From the IMG/VR virus record IMGVR_UViG_3300020043_004150, positions 1 through 32,356 of that record: a stretch of 32,356 nt of DNA. The stretch is one strand, 5' to 3'. The notes under the pieces are model-generated. The model was not told the origin of the DNA. It was given only the letters and a program-made list of their open reading frames with translations, and made no database searches. Positions 795 through 31,109 of the stretch are shown here, one piece after another; the first letter of the stretch is position 1, and every line of letters starts with the position of its first letter. Origin of the DNA: a virus (Duplodnaviria; Caudoviricetes). The position numbers and the translations under genes were made by a program.

Positions 795-3320
<2,526 letters not shown>

Positions 3321-3321
<1 letters not shown>

Positions 3322-4361
3322 TGAGAGTCCTTGGTACAGTAGCTTCTAGAAGAACACGCAAAGCAATTGCAATAACTCATGGAACAAGTCCATACATAAG
3401 TATTTATCCATGGGCTGCTGGTTTTGGAACTAAATATGCAAACCCTGCATCCGCTCCTGCTGGAGAAGGTAGAGATGTTGCTTTTGACAAAGCAGGTAGA
3501 TCAGTAGTTATTGCAAACATTACAAGTCCAAGAGTTGCTGCTTATCAATTTTTTGAAGGCTTTAGCACAAAATATGCAGACCCTGCAACATTACCTACCG
3601 GAAATGGGTTTGGTGTTGATTTCAACCATCTTGATTCAGAGGTTGCAGTAGCACATTCAGCAGACCCAACTGTTTCAGTATATGCATGGACTTATGCTTC
3701 TGGTTTTGGTACAAAGTATGCTAACCCGGCAACAAAACCAACTAATAATGGAAATGATGCTGAGTTTAATCATAACAGTACATATATTGCTGTTGGTCAT
3801 GATCAAAGCCCATATATATCTGCGTATCCTTGGACAGTTGGAACTGGATTTGGAACTAAACTAGCTAATCCAGCTACTTTACCTACGGGAGAAGTCAAAA
3901 GAATTGATTTTATGCCATCTACATCAACAACTGATATTGGTATGGCATTGGGATCTGGAGTTCCAGCAAATGATGGTGTTGCTTATCCCTTTTCAACAGG
4001 TTTTGGCACAAGATATGCATTAGCAGTTGGTTTGCAATTTACCGGTCAAGGTTTTCGTTTTACAAAATCTGGTACTCAATGTGGTTTTAGTACAAATAAT
4101 AGCCCATATCAATATGGTTATCCGTTTACCACTGGCACAGGTTTTGGAACAAAGTATGCAAACCCAGCTTCTCTTCCATCTGGATTAGGTATTGGTATTG
4201 ATTTTGATGATACAACAGCGTTTGTTGCTGGCGGTGGTAGAGGTTCACCATATCTTGAAGTTTGGGATTGGTCAGGAACTGGTTGGGGAAGTAAGTATGC
4301 TAACCCTGCAACATTGCCTGCTGGTGGAGCAAATAATCCTAAATGGTTTCCATCATATTAA
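3321..4361 (+). CDS. Seven-repeat beta-propeller protein, putative receptor-binding tip
   Basis: TAATG coupling gives a start at 3321 (MRVLGTVASR). Seven ~45-50 aa repeats centre on G(F/W)G(T/S)KYANPA(T/S)LP. Confidence 0.75.
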
Positions 4362-15749: not shown

Positions 15750-16349
15750 ATGGCAACATTAACAATACCTAATACATTTGTCAACAATACAACTATTGTT
15801 GCTGCTGAACACAACGCCAACTTTACAGCGGTTAAAAACTTTGTAGATGGGCTGGCTCAAGGCACTAACTTTGATGCAGGTGCAATCGGCGCAGAGGATA
15901 TCGCATCTTCTGCCATAACAGAAGCTAAGATAGCATCATCTGCTGTAACAACTAGCAAGATTGCAGCGTCAGTAACATTAACTACACCAAATATTGGTGC
16001 AGCAAGTGCTACTTCAATTGCTGTAACAGATAATGTTGTTTATCACATTACAATCAACGCTACGACTGGCGCATATACGCTTGTGCTTACCGATGATAAT
16101 CGTATGGTTGAGATGAACAATGCATCAGGAACAACTTTAACTATTCCGCTTAACTCTTCGGTTGCATTTCCAATTGGCACAATGATTACAATTTTACAAA
16201 CTGGCGCTGGACAAACTACAGTTGCAGGCGCTGCGGGTGTTACTGTTAACGGTACTCCTGGTCTTAAATTAAGAGCACAGTATTCAGCTGCTACATGTAT
16301 TAAAAGAGCAACTAATACTTGGGTTCTAATTGGTGATTTGGCAGCATAA
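15750..16349 (+). CDS. Proximal tail fibre with C-terminal adaptor domain
   Basis: N-terminal IPNTFVNNTTIVAAEHNANF anchor, ITEAKIA/VTTSKIA repeats, C-terminal domain shared with 1021..3321. Confidence 0.75.
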   Translation: MATLTIPNTFVNNTTIVAAEHNANFTAVKNFVDGLAQGTNFDAGAIGAEDIASSAITEAKIASSAVTTSKIAASVTLTTPNIGAASATSIAVTDNVVYHITINATTGAYTLVLTDDNRMVEMNNASGTTLTIPLNSSVAFPIGTMITILQTGAGQTTVAGAAGVTVNGTPGLKLRAQYSAATCIKRATNTWVLIGDLAA

Positions 16350-16975
16350 TGCCTACAATCGGTGCTTTAGCAGCAGGCGGGTCAATCCCAGACGCTCCAA
16401 CCATTGGAACAGCAACAGCTGGCAATGGCAGTGCGTCTGTTGCGTTTACCGCTTCAGCCTATATTGGTAAAGACACCGTTACTTATACTGCAACTTCTAC
16501 TCCTGGTTCTATTACTGGCACAAGTGCTTCATCTCCGATTACAGTTTCGGGTTTAAGTAATGGAACTGCTTACACTTTTGTAGTTAAAGCAACAACTAAC
16601 TATGGTGTTGATTCTGTTGACTCGGCTGCATCTAATTCAGTTACCCCAGCAGTTCCGCCAGTTGTTCCACCTGTAGTTCCACCAGTAACACCGCCTGTTA
16701 CTCCTCCTGTTACTCCTCCTGTTACACCACCTGTTACACCACCGGTAGTTCCGCCAGTTGTACCACCAGTCGTACCGCCAGTTGTTCCTCCTGTTGTTCC
16801 TCCTGTTGTTCCTCCTGTTGTTCCTCCTGTAAATCCTTGCACTGGTTGTGGCAACTGTGGTTCAACTCTTGGTCCTTGCCCATATAGCGAAACAGCATTT
16901 GGTGTTTACAACACATGTTATGATAGTTGTGGTGCTGTTTGTAGCAGTTCGTTCAGTGGTCTATGCGTTGAATAA
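16349..16975 (+). CDS. FN3 domain + polyproline stalk + Cys-rich tip protein
   Basis: PDAPTIGTATAG...VSGLSNGTAYTFVVKA is a fibronectin type III pattern, followed by 15 PPV(V/T/N) units and an 8-Cys C-terminus. Confidence 0.8.
   Translation: MPTIGALAAGGSIPDAPTIGTATAGNGSASVAFTASAYIGKDTVTYTATSTPGSITGTSASSPITVSGLSNGTAYTFVVKATTNYGVDSVDSAASNSVTPAVPPVVPPVVPPVTPPVTPPVTPPVTPPVTPPVVPPVVPPVVPPVVPPVVPPVVPPVVPPVNPCTGCGNCGSTLGPCPYSETAFGVYNTCYDSCGAVCSSSFSGLCVE
16655..16834 (+). repeat. 12-bp coding tandem repeat x15 (9 PPVV, 5 PPVT, 1 PPVN)
   Basis: Counted directly from the sequence. Confidence 0.95.
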
Positions 16976-16999
16976 ATAAACATACACCGAAGGAGGTAT

Positions 17000-17239
17000 A
17001 TGAGTAATATAGAAAATAATGTTAGAAAGATGCCTCATACGCATCCAAATGATTTTACTTGTTTTGCTATTGTTGTAGATGGTGAAGTTGCATCTTATGT
17101 AACACACATTAATACTGATGAATTACATATAGCAATTCATAGATCAGCCCCAATATTTATTGAGGTTCCGTATCTTGAAAGACCACCACAAGGTTCTCTT
17201 TGGGATGGCACAAAGTTTATATTAGAAGGTCAGCAATGA
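17000..17239 (+). CDS. Small fibre-associated protein, putative chaperone
   Basis: FAIVVDGEVA...WDGTKF, a similar style to 794..1021; strong RBS. Confidence 0.6.
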   Translation: MSNIENNVRKMPHTHPNDFTCFAIVVDGEVASYVTHINTDELHIAIHRSAPIFIEVPYLERPPQGSLWDGTKFILEGQQ

Positions 17240-17463
17240 GCGCATGGAAAGATTATAAAGCTAAATTAGGAACAACACGACCATGGGATGTAATAAACCC
17301 AAATGTTCCAAAGGCTACAGATAGTACTGCAGAAAGTCGCATGAGTATTTGTAATTTGTGTCCAGAATTAATAAACGCAACTAAACAGTGCAAACAATGC
17401 GGTTGTTTTATGAAGATGAAAGTAAGACTAGAGGCAGCTACATGCCCAATCGGGAAGTGGTGA
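17236..17463 (+). CDS. Six-Cys small protein, DUF6171-like
   Basis: ATGA overlap start at 17236; RMSICNLC...CKQCGCFM...CPIGKW. Confidence 0.7.
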   Translation: MSAWKDYKAKLGTTRPWDVINPNVPKATDSTAESRMSICNLCPELINATKQCKQCGCFMKMKVRLEAATCPIGKW

Positions 17464-18788
17464 TGTTAACTAAAGAAATCTTATTTGAACTACCTGAAGT
17501 GCTAGCAGAGCCAATGGTTATCAAAGACTTCTTCCCGAGCAACATGCTTGAGCGTGTTAAGAAAATAGTTGCAAATACAGGTATGGGAACAGATAAAGTT
17601 GAATTTCATACCATGCTTGCTAGATGGGAAGCACCGGTACAATTTGATGCTGATATTGAAGAGTATTGTTTAAATAAAGCCAGAGAGATTTTTAAAGATA
17701 ACTCATTACAAAAAGCTTATTTCTTTGCTGTTAGATACCAGAGAAAAGACGGATGTGTTCCGCATCTTTGGGAACATACAGATCAAAACGGTACACAAAC
17801 AACAATAGATATAACAATAGAAAACACAGCAAATTGGGGATTGATAGTAGAAGGTCAACATTTTGAACAAAACCCAAATGATGCAATTATCTTTGCTGGT
17901 CAACAGCATATGCATGCAAGACCACCGTATCCAACAAAAGATGAAAATGCATATACAACTGTTTTGTTTTTGCACTTTACACAACCAGATCATTGGATTC
18001 AAAAGGATAAAGATGGGTTTCATAAGTATGGCTCAGATGGTGACGCAAGGTTCTTTAACCGCAATCGCTACTTTGCAATGCCTGATGCCCCGATAAATCA
18101 ACCAGTTTGCCGTTGCCATGACTATTCTGTGATATTAAGATTTTATGATGAGTTTTTTGGGCATCTGATTGAATCTCAACCAGAGACAGTGGATATGAGA
18201 ATTTTAAATAAAGTAGAACTAGCCCCAGGAATTATTAAATATAAAGTTTCTAAAGAGTCAGTTCGTATATTAAAAGGGCTAACCCAAAACTCTATGTTTA
18301 AACAATGGCAACCTGCAGAGGTTCTTGTTGAAGACAATAAGCCGGGTATAAACTACGCTGCTAGAAATTGTTATAATTATTTTATAACAGGCAAAGAGTC
18401 AAGTTGCCATCCTCAAGACCCTATTAGAAGGCTCTCAGAATCCCTCCAGACGGGCCTGGATGCGATTATAGAAGACTTTAGGGGTAAGTACAGTATTGTA
18501 GACCTAATTTCTCATCATACGGTTTTATTGCGCTATGAAGAAGGCAATAAGTTCCATTATCACATAGATGATCACCCCAAGTTTCCAAGGGTTGTATCGC
18601 TTTCTATGTTTTTAAATGATGATTATGAAGGCGGAGTGTTAGAATTTAACCATTTTGGATTAAGGATTACTCCAGAAGCAGGCGATATCATCGTGTTTTG
18701 TTCTGGGTTTCCTTATATGCATCAAGTAGAGCCGGTAACTAAGGGTATTCGCTATGCAGTCGTAAAATGGTATGAATACAAAATGTAA
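17463..18788 (+). CDS. Tandem two-domain 2OG-Fe(II) dioxygenase (prolyl 4-hydroxylase-like)
   Basis: TGATG-coupled start at 17463. Domain 1: HTD...HAR. Domain 2: HID...YEGGVLEF...MHQVEPVTKGIRY. Confidence 0.85.
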   Translation: MLTKEILFELPEVLAEPMVIKDFFPSNMLERVKKIVANTGMGTDKVEFHTMLARWEAPVQFDADIEEYCLNKAREIFKDNSLQKAYFFAVRYQRKDGCVPHLWEHTDQNGTQTTIDITIENTANWGLIVEGQHFEQNPNDAIIFAGQQHMHARPPYPTKDENAYTTVLFLHFTQPDHWIQKDKDGFHKYGSDGDARFFNRNRYFAMPDAPINQPVCRCHDYSVILRFYDEFFGHLIESQPETVDMRILNKVELAPGIIKYKVSKESVRILKGLTQNSMFKQWQPAEVLVEDNKPGINYAARNCYNYFITGKESSCHPQDPIRRLSESLQTGLDAIIEDFRGKYSIVDLISHHTVLLRYEEGNKFHYHIDDHPKFPRVVSLSMFLNDDYEGGVLEFNHFGLRITPEAGDIIVFCSGFPYMHQVEPVTKGIRYAVVKWYEYKM

Positions 18789-28258: not shown

Positions 28259-28762
28259 TTATTTCTCTGCGTACCAACGCAAATCTGCGTTTTGTACTTC
28301 GGTAGATATAAAACTAAAACCAGCCTTTTCTAAAGTTTGATTCATGTTCCATTCTCCGACATTTTGATAATACTCATGACTTTTTATAGGTTTATCATCT
28401 ATTGCTGAATGAGGCTGTCTTCCTTCACCAGCGCAAGTTCCAACAAAGAATCCTCCATCCTTTAAGTTGTCATAACTATTATAAACTACTTCTTTCCATT
28501 GTTCCAAATGCTCAAACACTTCGCAGCACACAATGATGTCGTATGTGTTGAAAGCATCGTATTTTGTTGCATCTGCAACCAAATCAACTCCAGGTCCTTC
28601 TTGAATGTCTAAACCCAAATATGATTTACTGAATGGTAAAAATATACTTTTGATTGAACCATTAATATCTAGTGAGCCAATCTCAAGCACATCAAAATCT
28701 TTTCTATCGCCTCTCCATAAATGGAAAGTTTTAAATACATAGTTTTGAACATCAAGATGCAT
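28259..28762 (-). CDS. Class I SAM-dependent methyltransferase
   Basis: TAATG-coupled start at 28762; VLEIGS, GLD...GVDLVADA, YDIIVCCEVFEH, LKDGG. Confidence 0.9.
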   Translation of the reverse strand: MHLDVQNYVFKTFHLWRGDRKDFDVLEIGSLDINGSIKSIFLPFSKSYLGLDIQEGPGVDLVADATKYDAFNTYDIIVCCEVFEHLEQWKEVVYNSYDNLKDGGFFVGTCAGEGRQPHSAIDDKPIKSHEYYQNVGEWNMNQTLEKAGFSFISTEVQNADLRWYAEK

Positions 28763-29232
28763 TAGATATGTCTCCAAACTTTTCTTTTAATAATTCTAGA
28801 AATTGTTGGTTGGTTTGTATTAAACATCTTTGCAATTTGCATTTGATTCTTTTCATGGCTGTCGTATAACCTACGAATCTCAACAACTTGTTCTGGAGTC
28901 AGTTTGCTTTGCCAATGGAATTGTCCACGCCTTACTGAGTTTTTGGCTGGAACAAGCAAAGAATCTTCTTCTATGCGCAAATGATTTGGGTTACAGCACA
29001 ATCTATTACCGCAAATTTGCTCTACAATAGCGTGTTTAGGCAAGTTTTCATCAACCCATAGCCTATAAGCAAGGCGATGAACCCTGTGCATTTCTTTATC
29101 TATAGTCCAGATGCCAAATCCTTGTTTTGAACAAGCACCATTCCATGTCCAGCAATCAGACTCAACAGTAACTATTAACTTCTTTTGCATTCGCTTTTTA
29201 ATAAATTCATTTGTATATTTTGGTGTAATCAT
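28762..29232 (-). CDS. Degenerate HNH endonuclease with C-terminal HTH
   Basis: CWTWNG...VHRLAY...EQICGNRLCCNPNHL, then SKLTPEQVVEIR...TISRIIKRKVW. Confidence 0.8.
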   Translation of the reverse strand: MITPKYTNEFIKKRMQKKLIVTVESDCWTWNGACSKQGFGIWTIDKEMHRVHRLAYRLWVDENLPKHAIVEQICGNRLCCNPNHLRIEEDSLLVPAKNSVRRGQFHWQSKLTPEQVVEIRRLYDSHEKNQMQIAKMFNTNQPTISRIIKRKVWRHI

Positions 29233-31109
29233 TTTACTTTCTCCTTTTTGTTATAACTGTTTGCTTTATCAACTGCTTTGCGTTTCTTTTCATAAACAAG
29301 TTTGTCTCTGTGCATTTCATTTAACCAATCTGCTGGCGGATCTTCATTAAATGTTTTGGAATCTTCATGCTTACAACGAGTTTTGTGTGTGATAACTGCA
29401 CGGCGTTTAACAACCTGCGTTACCCAATCAACAACATCGTTATCACCGGCAAGCCAACGCAACGATTCATCAAATCTCCAATGAGGTACAAGGTCTTTGG
29501 CTAACATATAACAGAAACCTGCCATACCGCCCCAACCGTCATATCGTGAACCTGACACGCCGTAAACATCACGATCTCTGTCATCATTGACATTTGGTTC
29601 TGTTGAATAGTTAGGGCATATCAATCCAATTGATGGGTCTCGCAACATACAAGTCATAAGAGTTGTCATACAATCTGGGGCTAAAGATATGTCATCATTG
29701 ATAAATGCCATGTAGTTACCAGTGCCAAGAACTTTCATGGCTGTATTCCACATGCGATGAATACCAATACCTTCCGGGACCATTAATTTAATAATGTTGT
29801 CGGGTATAGCAGATAAGCTATTATAAGCTTTGTCTCCGTCAGCAATAACAACAATACGATCAACTTTGTAATCCCTCATAAGTTGTGCAATAAGCACTGT
29901 CAAACCATTGAGATTAGATTTGTAAGGGATAACAACATCAACTTTTGCTTCTTGGGCCTTATAAAAGAATAAATTGTTTTGCAATCTTATGTCATTTGGG
30001 GCTAATGATAAAGCAATAGTGCCGTGTTTAACAGCTACATCCATCATGCCAAGCTGTGCTGAAGCCAATGCAAGCAGATCGTGAGGCAACCAACCCCACA
30101 TAATTGCTTCGGTTAGATACAAATCACCACGATTGGTGATAGATAATGCTCTATTGGCAGCATCAAACATACCAGCCCAGTTCTTCACATCCTGATAATG
30201 CTGTGCTAATTCAACCCAGCATTCTCTGCCATGACTCCATTCAGCAACAGCACGAAGCAACCATTGTTCACGCTCGTGAGAGCCAACAGGTGATTGTTTA
30301 GCGATGTAACGCATTGAGAAGGCTCTTTCTGCATCCCAAGTAGCACTCTTGAGGGCTAAATGTCGTTTAAACATTGCAATAGATTCTTCTGTACGCCCGT
30401 AATACATTAATTCTCGGGCGGCATAATAAGTATTTCTATCGTTTTCTGGGTTTTCTTCTACATCTAACAATAACAAAGGTAGATAAGAACTACGAGGCTT
30501 GCTATTGTCAGCGAAGTGCTGGATACGCAGTCCAGTCCAGCCTTGACGCTCTTCTTCTAGTGCTACATTGACTTCATGTACTCTGTTAACCCATTTATGT
30601 GAGTGTCTGCGTACAATCTTGTCTCCACGATATGATAAACCAACTGATTTAGTTGCCCTTGTTGCTTCAATATCATATTCACCGTTTTCTTTAAATACCG
30701 GTTGAGTCCAATTCCAATCGTAATCATAACGAGGTCGGTTTACAATCAAAGGAACCGGGTCTAAATGTCTTCTCCAATCTGGTACAAAGACTTCATCAAG
30801 GTCAAGGTTAATCAACCAAGCATCATTGTCAGGCAACATCTCACGCAAATCATTGCGGGCAACCGCAAAAGACCAACTATCATATGTTTTATAAAATACT
30901 GTAATGCCTAATGACTCTGCTAGTTCTTTAGAACCATCAGTTGAGCCTGTATCAAGCAGATAAACACCATCACCTTCTCGTAGTTCTGGTTTAATGCTGT
31001 CATACCAGCGTTTTACATGCTTGGCTTCGTTTTTCATGATGCTGCAAACATAAACAGGTAAATTATTACCTTCTGTGACATGTGGTGTTTTTACAAGTGG
31101 TAACATCAT
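29229..31109 (-). CDS. Glycosyltransferase, GT2-TPR-GT2 fusion
   Basis: IMKNE, DTGSTDG, FAVARN, LDLDE and VHE; TPR-like helices; second GT-A domain VVIPY...WN...INDD...GDND. Confidence 0.9.
   Translation of the reverse strand: MMLPLVKTPHVTEGNNLPVYVCSIMKNEAKHVKRWYDSIKPELREGDGVYLLDTGSTDGSKELAESLGITVFYKTYDSWSFAVARNDLREMLPDNDAWLINLDLDEVFVPDWRRHLDPVPLIVNRPRYDYDWNWTQPVFKENGEYDIEATRATKSVGLSYRGDKIVRRHSHKWVNRVHEVNVALEEERQGWTGLRIQHFADNSKPRSSYLPLLLLDVEENPENDRNTYYAARELMYYGRTEESIAMFKRHLALKSATWDAERAFSMRYIAKQSPVGSHEREQWLLRAVAEWSHGRECWVELAQHYQDVKNWAGMFDAANRALSITNRGDLYLTEAIMWGWLPHDLLALASAQLGMMDVAVKHGTIALSLAPNDIRLQNNLFFYKAQEAKVDVVIPYKSNLNGLTVLIAQLMRDYKVDRIVVIADGDKAYNSLSAIPDNIIKLMVPEGIGIHRMWNTAMKVLGTGNYMAFINDDISLAPDCMTTLMTCMLRDPSIGLICPNYSTEPNVNDDRDRDVYGVSGSRYDGWGGMAGFCYMLAKDLVPHWRFDESLRWLAGDNDVVDWVTQVVKRRAVITHKTRCKHEDSKTFNEDPPADWLNEMHRDKLVYEKKRKAVDKANSYNKKEKVK

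Follow-up and report, generated by a model that had tools for sequence, protein, structure and literature searches.

A proline-stalked carrier protein encoded beside a tandem 2-oxoglutarate oxygenase: a likely maturation cassette for a probable phage tail appendage

The cassette and its four genes

This article deals with a four-gene cassette of the virus record IMGVR_UViG_3300020043_004150 (Duplodnaviria; Caudoviricetes), whose 32,356 nucleotides (nt) form the window, that is, the whole stretch of DNA analysed and the entire genome of a podovirus-like phage. In order, the genes encode a carrier protein with an FN3-like anchor, a proline stalk and a cysteine-rich tip, a small protein, a DUF6171 protein, and a tandem 2-oxoglutarate (2OG)-Fe(II) oxygenase (Table 1). 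An earlier note, made from the sequence, had described just such a series, FN3-(PPVx)15-8Cys followed by the three downstream genes and with two intact triads in the oxygenase, and had placed it between tail and ejection genes. The genes and their overlaps are indeed seen and a tail gene lies upstream, whereas the genes 3' of the cassette have no Pfam or PHROG match, so that their "ejection" label reflects gene order only. Taken together, the four genes likely serve the maturation of a probable tail appendage.

Table 1. Positions of the cassette genes, of the parts of the carrier, and of two further genes in the window
Feature	Position	Strand	Basis
Upstream tail gene	15750..16349	+	PHROG 8780 minor tail protein E 2e-27; PHROG 18179 virion structural protein E 1e-19
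Carrier, 208 amino acids (aa), FN3-like anchor, proline stalk and Cys-rich tip; probable tail appendage	16349..16975	+	PF00041 E 1e-3; PHROG 6977 minor tail protein E 4.5e-4
Stalk, residues 103-162, 15 PPVx units (9 PPVV, 5 PPVT, 1 PPVN)	16655..16834	+	sequence
Tip, 46 aa, 8 Cys (residues 164-206)	16835..16975	+	sequence
Small beta-beta-alpha protein, 79 aa, no named family	17000..17239	+	model; gene order
DUF6171 protein, 75 aa, CxxC...CxxCGC...CPxGKW	17236..17463	+	PF19668 E 2e-6, 28.5 bits, above cut-off 27
Tandem 2OG-Fe(II) oxygenase, 441 aa	17463..18788	+	PF13640 (C-domain) E 1e-14, above cut-off
GT2-TPR-GT2 glycosyltransferase, unlinked to the cassette	29229..31109	-	PF00535 E 4.5e-14

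The start codon of the carrier overlaps the stop codon of the upstream tail gene (TAATG at 16349). Its N-terminal FN3 match scores 19.7 bits, below the curated cut-off of 25, and the same family is present in many close homologues. The PPVx units of the stalk use mixed synonymous codons, and contigs from two other public runs cross the repeat with one unit fewer; hence the repeat is real and operates at the protein level, and an assembly artefact as its origin is ruled out by those spanning contigs. The stalk is predicted to form a polyproline-II rod and is the presumed substrate of the enzyme. The tip, in turn, is hypervariable: across 84 distinct loci the median identity of the last 45 aa is 11%, versus 57% for DUF6171, and in a 1.4-kb contig piece from a near-identical strain 19 of the 33 differences listed fall at 16833-16961, within the tip. 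Together with the gene position, this variability is what would hint at an adhesin, the role given to the protein in the earlier note.

The place of the carrier in the virion is derived from its gene position and from a weak PHROG match, and it would be conceivable that the carrier is a released or host-surface protein that the cassette modifies, the more so as some relatives end in Hint-like modules that could self-cleave (weak matches, below the cut-off). We consider this very unlikely: the gene sits in the tail block with overlapping start and stop codons, other phages have the same stalk and tip fused onto long tail-like proteins, and no signal peptide is apparent in the carrier by eye. 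A probable tail appendage is the identity with which we continue.

A gap of 24 nt, containing GGAGG, separates the carrier from the gene of the small protein. The model of this protein (predicted local distance difference test score, pLDDT, 85) has no Foldseek match in the PDB and matches only uncharacterised phage proteins in BFVD; likewise, no Pfam, named PHROG or PDB match was found for the small protein, and a weak feature lead points to Caudo_TAP_N (Atlas score 0.81). The label "chaperone-like" given to it in the earlier note was not confirmed. Longer forms were absent from one search, which is weak evidence since fusions exist in other sets. A role as tip partner or assembly helper is our working assignment for this protein.

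The small-protein and DUF6171 genes overlap (ATGA at 17236), as do the DUF6171 stop codon and the ATG of the oxygenase (TGATG at 17463), and the relatives of the oxygenase begin at the same methionine. The DUF6171 assignment has an Atlas score of 0.97, the six cysteines are invariant in 77/77 sequences, and a DUF6171 profile search against the PDB gave nothing below E 0.37. A complex prediction for tip, small protein and DUF6171 scored 0.00 and is counted neither way. Unannotated DUF6171 genes can also be found in records of cultured phages, namely, Syn9 (L229:3995-4156), PSS2 (L234:4025-4213), and X1 (L231, near 4001).

A fixed core with exchangeable stalks and enzymes

The cassette system is real and widespread, as can be seen in loci collected from the enzyme side, the repeat side, and the DUF6171 side; the number of stretches with the DUF6171 motif is estimated at roughly 1,500. 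The enzyme-side set comprises 26 viral loci, 25 of which (18 distinct) hold a near-full-length relative of the oxygenase, each with a proline repeat and a Cys-rich end upstream; the remaining one is a distant partial match without these two features. The N-terminal parts of the carriers in front of these relatives are very diverse (FN3, tail-like proteins of 315-1116 aa), and so the stalk-tip end and the downstream genes appear to move as a module.

For the repeat-side set, a (PPVT)3PPV scan yielded 122 stretches, with flanks for 80, among which 51 distinct loci had at least 1.4 kb downstream. Where the repeat ended in a short Cys tip, DUF6171 followed in 25/25 loci (6 of which are contigs also present in the enzyme-side set) and the oxygenase in 23/25, versus 0/26 for either gene where the tip was lacking, some of these 26 possibly being antisense (wrong-strand) or spurious frames. 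The idea that a PPVT repeat on its own predicts the oxygenase is rejected by these tip-less loci. The DUF6171-side set, finally, consists of the 80 best loci, chosen for neither stalk nor enzyme; after dropping repeats of earlier loci, a Cys-tipped carrier was present in 48 of the 52 with enough upstream DNA. Over all sets, a member of the small-protein family lies directly 5' of DUF6171 in 72/84 loci. Because DUF6171 follows the Cys tip and the small protein precedes DUF6171, the fixed unit is the Cys-rich tip, the small protein, and DUF6171, whereas stalk and enzyme are exchanged in matched pairs, a feature that the earlier note had missed.

This pairing was scored in 50 of the 80 DUF6171-anchored loci, kept for being distinct and for having a carrier of at least 100 aa, at least 4 Cys at its end, and 1.5 kb downstream. 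With a proline stalk defined as at least 45% Pro in 24 aa, and the oxygenase scored in the first two downstream genes, the oxygenase lies downstream of 20/20 proline stalks versus 2/30 others. Among the proline stalks, the tandem form of the enzyme accompanies PPVx repeats in 8/8 loci and other repeats in 0/12. GT60 (PF11397), a glycosyltransferase family, accompanies runs of at least four Thr in 5/7 loci versus 2/37 without. The genomic linkage of repeat genes and oxygenases, for which the earlier note had proposed a check, is therefore strong and specific to proline stalks.

A second set was seeded with DUF6171-GT60 fusions and is for that reason rich in GT60. It contributed 38 new distinct loci of 80 (dropped were 1 without DUF6171, 14 short ones, 12 without a called Cys carrier, and 15 duplicates). 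Here the oxygenase accompanies a proline stalk in 20/24 loci versus 1/14 others, the single exception being a wrong-frame call whose true carrier has a proline stalk, and GT60 accompanies Thr runs in 8/8 loci versus 10/30. The 12 dropped for want of a Cys carrier comprise six stalk-less Cys tips of 63-66 aa, four Hint-like ends, and two others; downstream of the six stalk-less tips, there was no match to the enzyme profiles used. On a resolved tree of the nozzle protein, each of the two traits, stalk and oxygenase, switches 3 times, and the two coincide in every one of the 26 rows. Taken from the gene neighborhoods, the pairing of stalk types with enzyme types suggests that the phages likely carry out modification of their stalks themselves, of a kind also seen in algae and animals.

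Two of these variants deserve a description of their own. The stalk-less loci (L290:910-1110, L292, L299, L305, L306, and L309) encode a short conserved leader and a 6-Cys tip; behind these tips come the genes for a protein of 131-133 aa and for DUF6171, a layout that resembles precursors of ribosomally synthesized and post-translationally modified peptides (RiPPs). Hint/intein-like ends (weak Pfam matches, below the cut-off; terminal HNK) occur on carriers with a Pro/Thr stalk and a Cys module (L248:807-3479, L304:293-2947, L250, L259, and P0109) and suggest self-cleavage of the appendage.

The position behind DUF6171 is not reserved for the oxygenase. Across 73 loci, this enzyme slot also contains GT60 (8), GT61 (8), cupin (6), radical S-adenosylmethionine (SAM)-SPASM (5), and carbamoyltransferase (1) genes. 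Such variety, together with the fact that DUF6171 tracks the tip and not the repeat and that domain 1 of the oxygenase is unclassified, fits an enzyme whose targets are residues other than proline (Asp, Asn, Val, Thr) or the Cys-rich tip, much as in RiPP tailoring, with the stalk as a mere spacer. Tips without a proline stalk, however, mostly go without the oxygenase (2/30, and 0/6 of the stalk-less ones), and a near-same tip occurs with a PPVT stalk and the oxygenase in one locus (L152) and with a PTTAA stalk and radical SAM/GT60 as first genes in another (L155), so that we regard the tip and non-proline residues as unlikely targets and hold to the stalk prolines. The radical SAM-SPASM genes often stand beside GT60 or GT61 (L081:4929-5783, L204:1865-2914, and L101:1722-2591), and in one locus (L189:5702-7587) the slot behind DUF6171 harbors genes for a fatty-acid desaturase and a glutathione peroxidase.

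Fusions complete this picture. Among the 120 listed of 221 longer DUF6171 proteins, DUF6171 is fused to GT60 in 12, to the small protein in 8 (in front in 7, behind in 1), to an oxygenase domain in 5 (behind in 3, in front in 2), and to GNAT in one, and in P0154 a Cys-rich carrier is itself fused to DUF6171. Tip and small protein are joined in L157, L165, and P0097. As the fusions occur in both orders, mere loss of a stop codon is disfavored. Two predicted pairings were checked, each in one locus type, and both fit: a (PT)n stalk precedes a DUF6171-GT60 fusion, and a polyPro/(PT)n stalk precedes a DUF6171-oxygenase fusion. Since its fusion partners include the small protein, oxygenases (on either side), GT60, and a carrier, DUF6171 is likely an adaptor that brings enzyme to substrate. 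In being fused to varied enzymes it behaves like a targeting module, for which RiPP recognition elements offer an analogy, albeit with no sequence or fold match between them. Directly behind DUF6171-GT60 fusions, an HtrL/YibB-family gene (L244:5208-5996, E 1e-46) was observed, possibly encoding an elongating glycosyltransferase.

The tandem oxygenase and its candidate substrate

The oxygenase model (pLDDT 73.7) consists of two beta-rich domains, and the triads H105-x-D107...H151 in domain 1 and H367-x-D369...H420 in domain 2 are invariant in 14/14 aligned sequences. With the HxD...H triad in a double-stranded beta-helix (DSBH) fold, the enzyme belongs to the 2OG-Fe(II) oxygenase superfamily. 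Domain 2 has the usual basic residue on the last strand, R430, at the position expected to bind 2OG. Domain 1 has an invariant R153 (HxR, two residues past the last His), common to its stand-alone relatives, and matches PHROG 2954 (E 5e-11) and, weakly, WelO5.

Whole-chain Foldseek matches are topped by OGFOD1/Tpa1 and include the chlorovirus enzyme vCPH, an algal prolyl 4-hydroxylase (P4H), PHD2, and lysyl hydroxylases. In the structure search with domain 2, prolyl hydroxylase domain (PHD) or P4H enzymes occupy every one of the first 50 rows (Z 17.5-15.6), among them an algal P4H with (Ser-Pro)5, and its sequence profile gives E 3e-6 for P3H1 and for a bacterial P4H versus E 0.096 for a TET-like enzyme. 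As judged from the model, the fold of domain 2 is nearer to P4H/PHD than to AlkB/TET. A grouping with AlkB/TET, which the earlier note had flagged as a danger to its own proposal, was rejected (Tet_JBP 18.1 bits versus a cut-off of 34.9), and the neighbors of the oxygenase across loci are tail and protein-modifying genes, with no DNA-modification context.

We therefore propose, with a probability of about 0.6, that the tandem oxygenase, recruited via DUF6171 and the small protein, hydroxylates the stalk prolines in the cytoplasm, and that the outcome is a rod, stiffened or protected, that bears a variable tip. The earlier note is thereby supported in part: its main idea, that the oxygenase acts on the proline stalk, withstood the two refuting conditions that could be checked, linkage and enzyme class, and stands within a larger modular system. 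The carrier would be made in the host cytoplasm and dock on the tail via its FN3-like domain, whereas the stalk, as an extended polyproline-II rod, would hold the variable, Cys-knotted tip away from the virion. The small protein and DUF6171 would act on the tip, by binding or by folding it, and would draw in the enzyme that happens to fill the downstream slot. Using O2, Fe(II), and 2OG, domain 2 would then form 4-hydroxyproline, and domain 1 would act on a second position of the PPVx unit. Hydroxylation might stiffen, solubilise, or protect the stalk, which in the GT60/GT61 relatives would be glycosylated as well, and the tip would bind a host or habitat surface. Beyond this single cassette, one may tentatively picture, at somewhat below even odds, a mobile "appendage tailoring" system of freshwater phages, in which DUF6171 is a universal adaptor between a tip, hypervariable and Cys-knotted, whose stalk resembles extensins or mucins and the prolyl hydroxylases, GT60/GT61, or radical SAM enzymes that are plugged in to suit the stalk.

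Critically speaking, several points weigh against the proposal, both on the side of the enzyme and on that of the loci. Domain 1, whose last strand lacks a basic residue, is without the canonical 2OG-binding Arg, and the fold-search lists barely cover it; for domain 2, PHD2 entries crowd the PDB list, and sequence profiles tie P3H/P4H with the PKHD-type enzymes PiuC/Sbal_3634, for which proline repeats are not established as substrates. The thresholds for "Pro-rich" were set after viewing the data (three were tried, with the same trend in all), and no oxygenase was called in 2/25 PPVT-tip loci and in 4/24 proline stalks of the second set. Moreover, the loci are related, so the counts are not phylogenetically independent, and the whole cassette may travel as a single block: the nozzle tree yields 2 supported independent pairs (p 0.5) and the DUF6171 tree 1-2 (tree tests p 0.5-1 overall), the latter because that tree, with 76 columns, is too poorly resolved. 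No cultured phage carrying the cassette was found; the DUF6171 relatives in Syn9, Moby, X1, S-SCSM2R, Sf-FS3, and PSS2 sit in other contexts, five of these records of distant relatives having no Cys-tipped carrier among the translated neighbors and the sixth showing only short hypothetical genes. Finally, the chlorovirus PBCV-1 has a proven P4H, yet its virion proteins, once purified, showed no hydroxyproline, and the role of the enzyme is unknown (PMC7019647).

The same relatedness bears on the possibility that the oxygenase gene hitch-hikes with the tail cassette as an auxiliary (moron) gene, its product having a host protein or a small molecule for substrate. Block inheritance can mimic co-selection where tree tests are under-powered, 282 phage records, most of them of cyanophages, contain related 2OG oxygenases, PHROG 61 files the oxygenase as auxiliary, and a Pseudomonas enzyme bound to EF-Tu is a close fold match. 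On the other hand, the double match of proline stalks with oxygenase and Thr runs with GT60 appears in two sets, the tandem enzyme follows the repeat type, oxygenase and DUF6171 are fused in both orders, and the pairing is kept across unrelated carriers; an unconnected moron is thus rather unlikely in our view, and hydroxylation of the adjoining stalk remains the reading that we favor.

If this reading is true, phages make eukaryote-like hydroxyproline or mucin rods and DUF6171 gains a function; the enzymes could then also be put to use in bacteria for the hydroxylation or glycosylation of repeat proteins. Should the wider tailoring system hold as well, virions would have hydroxyproline-rich or mucin-type rods built in the bacterial cytoplasm, and a substrate could be named for a share of the many unexplained phage 2OG oxygenases now filed as auxiliary metabolic genes. 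The cassette is a specific and cheap test case, with a short repeat peptide beside its enzyme and natural controls in the Pro, Thr, and stalk-less versions.

Genome context and comparison with known systems

The genome encodes an SU10 adaptor as well as a P22/SU10-type portal and terminase, with the tail genes after them (Pfam), and near-identical DNA is contained in freshwater, estuary, and wetland sequencing runs, one RNA run having a small share. No host was identified, the 9 genome matches being mostly short contigs in bins of unrelated taxa; comparison of the capsid gave none either, with matches of only 24-36%.

A 766-aa collagen-like protein (1021-3321, + strand; PF01391 E 1e-54) with G-Y-T/G-A-T/G-P-T triplets and a tail-type C-terminus lies elsewhere in the window. 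It could be asked whether this or another virion protein is what the enzyme modifies, since for collagen-like and tail-collar proteins encoded together with such enzymes, hydroxylation was predicted by Iyer et al. (PMC2938197). This is highly improbable: the collagen-like gene is 13 kb away, its product is mostly GYT/GAT with few prolines, and the presence of the enzyme follows the adjacent stalk, our preferred substrate. The collagen-like protein is very rich in Tyr and Thr and is itself a candidate for glycosylation.

Glycosylation of the stalk, also raised in the earlier note, is not encoded in this cassette, and GT60/GT61 are found in its relatives. The genome itself has only the unlinked GT2-TPR-GT2 gene, a possible source of glycosylation whose product weakly resembles GmaR (E 1.3e-4) and SunS (E 7.7e-3). 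Nearby, a methyltransferase gene (28259-28777, - strand) possibly forms a protein-glycosylation pair with it. At the opposite end of the window, a Gly-rich protein (237-794, + strand) and an 80-aa protein with W-x-W-D-G-type motifs (779-1021, + strand) look by eye like a second tip-plus-small-gene pair, with no match to the small-protein profile of the cassette, and a 346-aa repeat protein (3321-4361, + strand) of YANPATLP units appears propeller-like by eye, with no Pfam or NCBIfam match.

The best structural neighbors of domain 2 are PHD/EGLN enzymes and the Pseudomonas putida P4H (Z 17.5, 17.3, and 17.0). These enzymes, like OGFOD1/Tpa1, differ in modifying single sites of folded regulators or ribosomal proteins, and identity is ~20% or less; the OGFOD1/Tpa1 match (template modeling score ~0.3, root-mean-square deviation ~20 A) is chiefly owed to the presence of two successive DSBH domains. 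Tfa/Caudo_TAP chaperones resemble the small protein in being encoded by a small gene right behind a fiber tip and in being fused to the tip in some phages, with no sequence or fold match shown between them.

A hydroxylase paired with a co-encoded repeat protein has already been predicted by Iyer et al., who, in the available part of their paper, described operons in which the repeat protein is the predicted 2OG oxygenase substrate and further transferases act afterwards, and who also noted cyanophage oxygenase arrays (PMC2938197). Their systems differ in having Gly-rich/collagen substrates and beta-hydroxylase, phytanoyl-CoA hydroxylase, and sulfotransferase families, and that part makes no mention of proline stalks, Cys tips, or DUF6171 (PMC2938197). 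In the literature covered, which excluded subscription papers and supplements (including the PMC2938197 supplement listing phage oxygenase neighborhoods), no description was found of the cassette, of DUF6171, or of PF11397 in phages.

Phage-encoded virion glycosylation is established for F1 mycobacteriophages, as reported with reference to Freeman 2023 (PMC11256854); it differs in concerning capsid glycans, not a stalk, and in having no hydroxylase step. Eukaryotic counterparts are the hydroxyproline (Hyp)-rich rods of plant and algal extensins and the GT60 enzymes of protists, which start mucin-type glycans on Ser/Thr-rich domains and are related to the Skp1 Hyp transferase (PMC8724618, PMC3188802); the cassette in the window, for its part, has no glycosyltransferase. 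Among viruses, the use of prolyl 4-hydroxylase genes, abundant auxiliary genes of aquatic viruses, "remains cryptic" (PMC9301287). The closest parallels are vCPH of PBCV-1 (5c5t/5c5u) and the algal P4H (3gze, 2jig), which are likewise 2OG-Fe(II) enzymes for proline-rich peptides and to which domain 2 aligns with Foldseek E 2e-9 and 1e-8 (Z 17.1 to 3gze). Unlike these, the cassette belongs to a bacteriophage and combines a tandem enzyme with two intact sites, an adjoining candidate substrate, and two helper genes.

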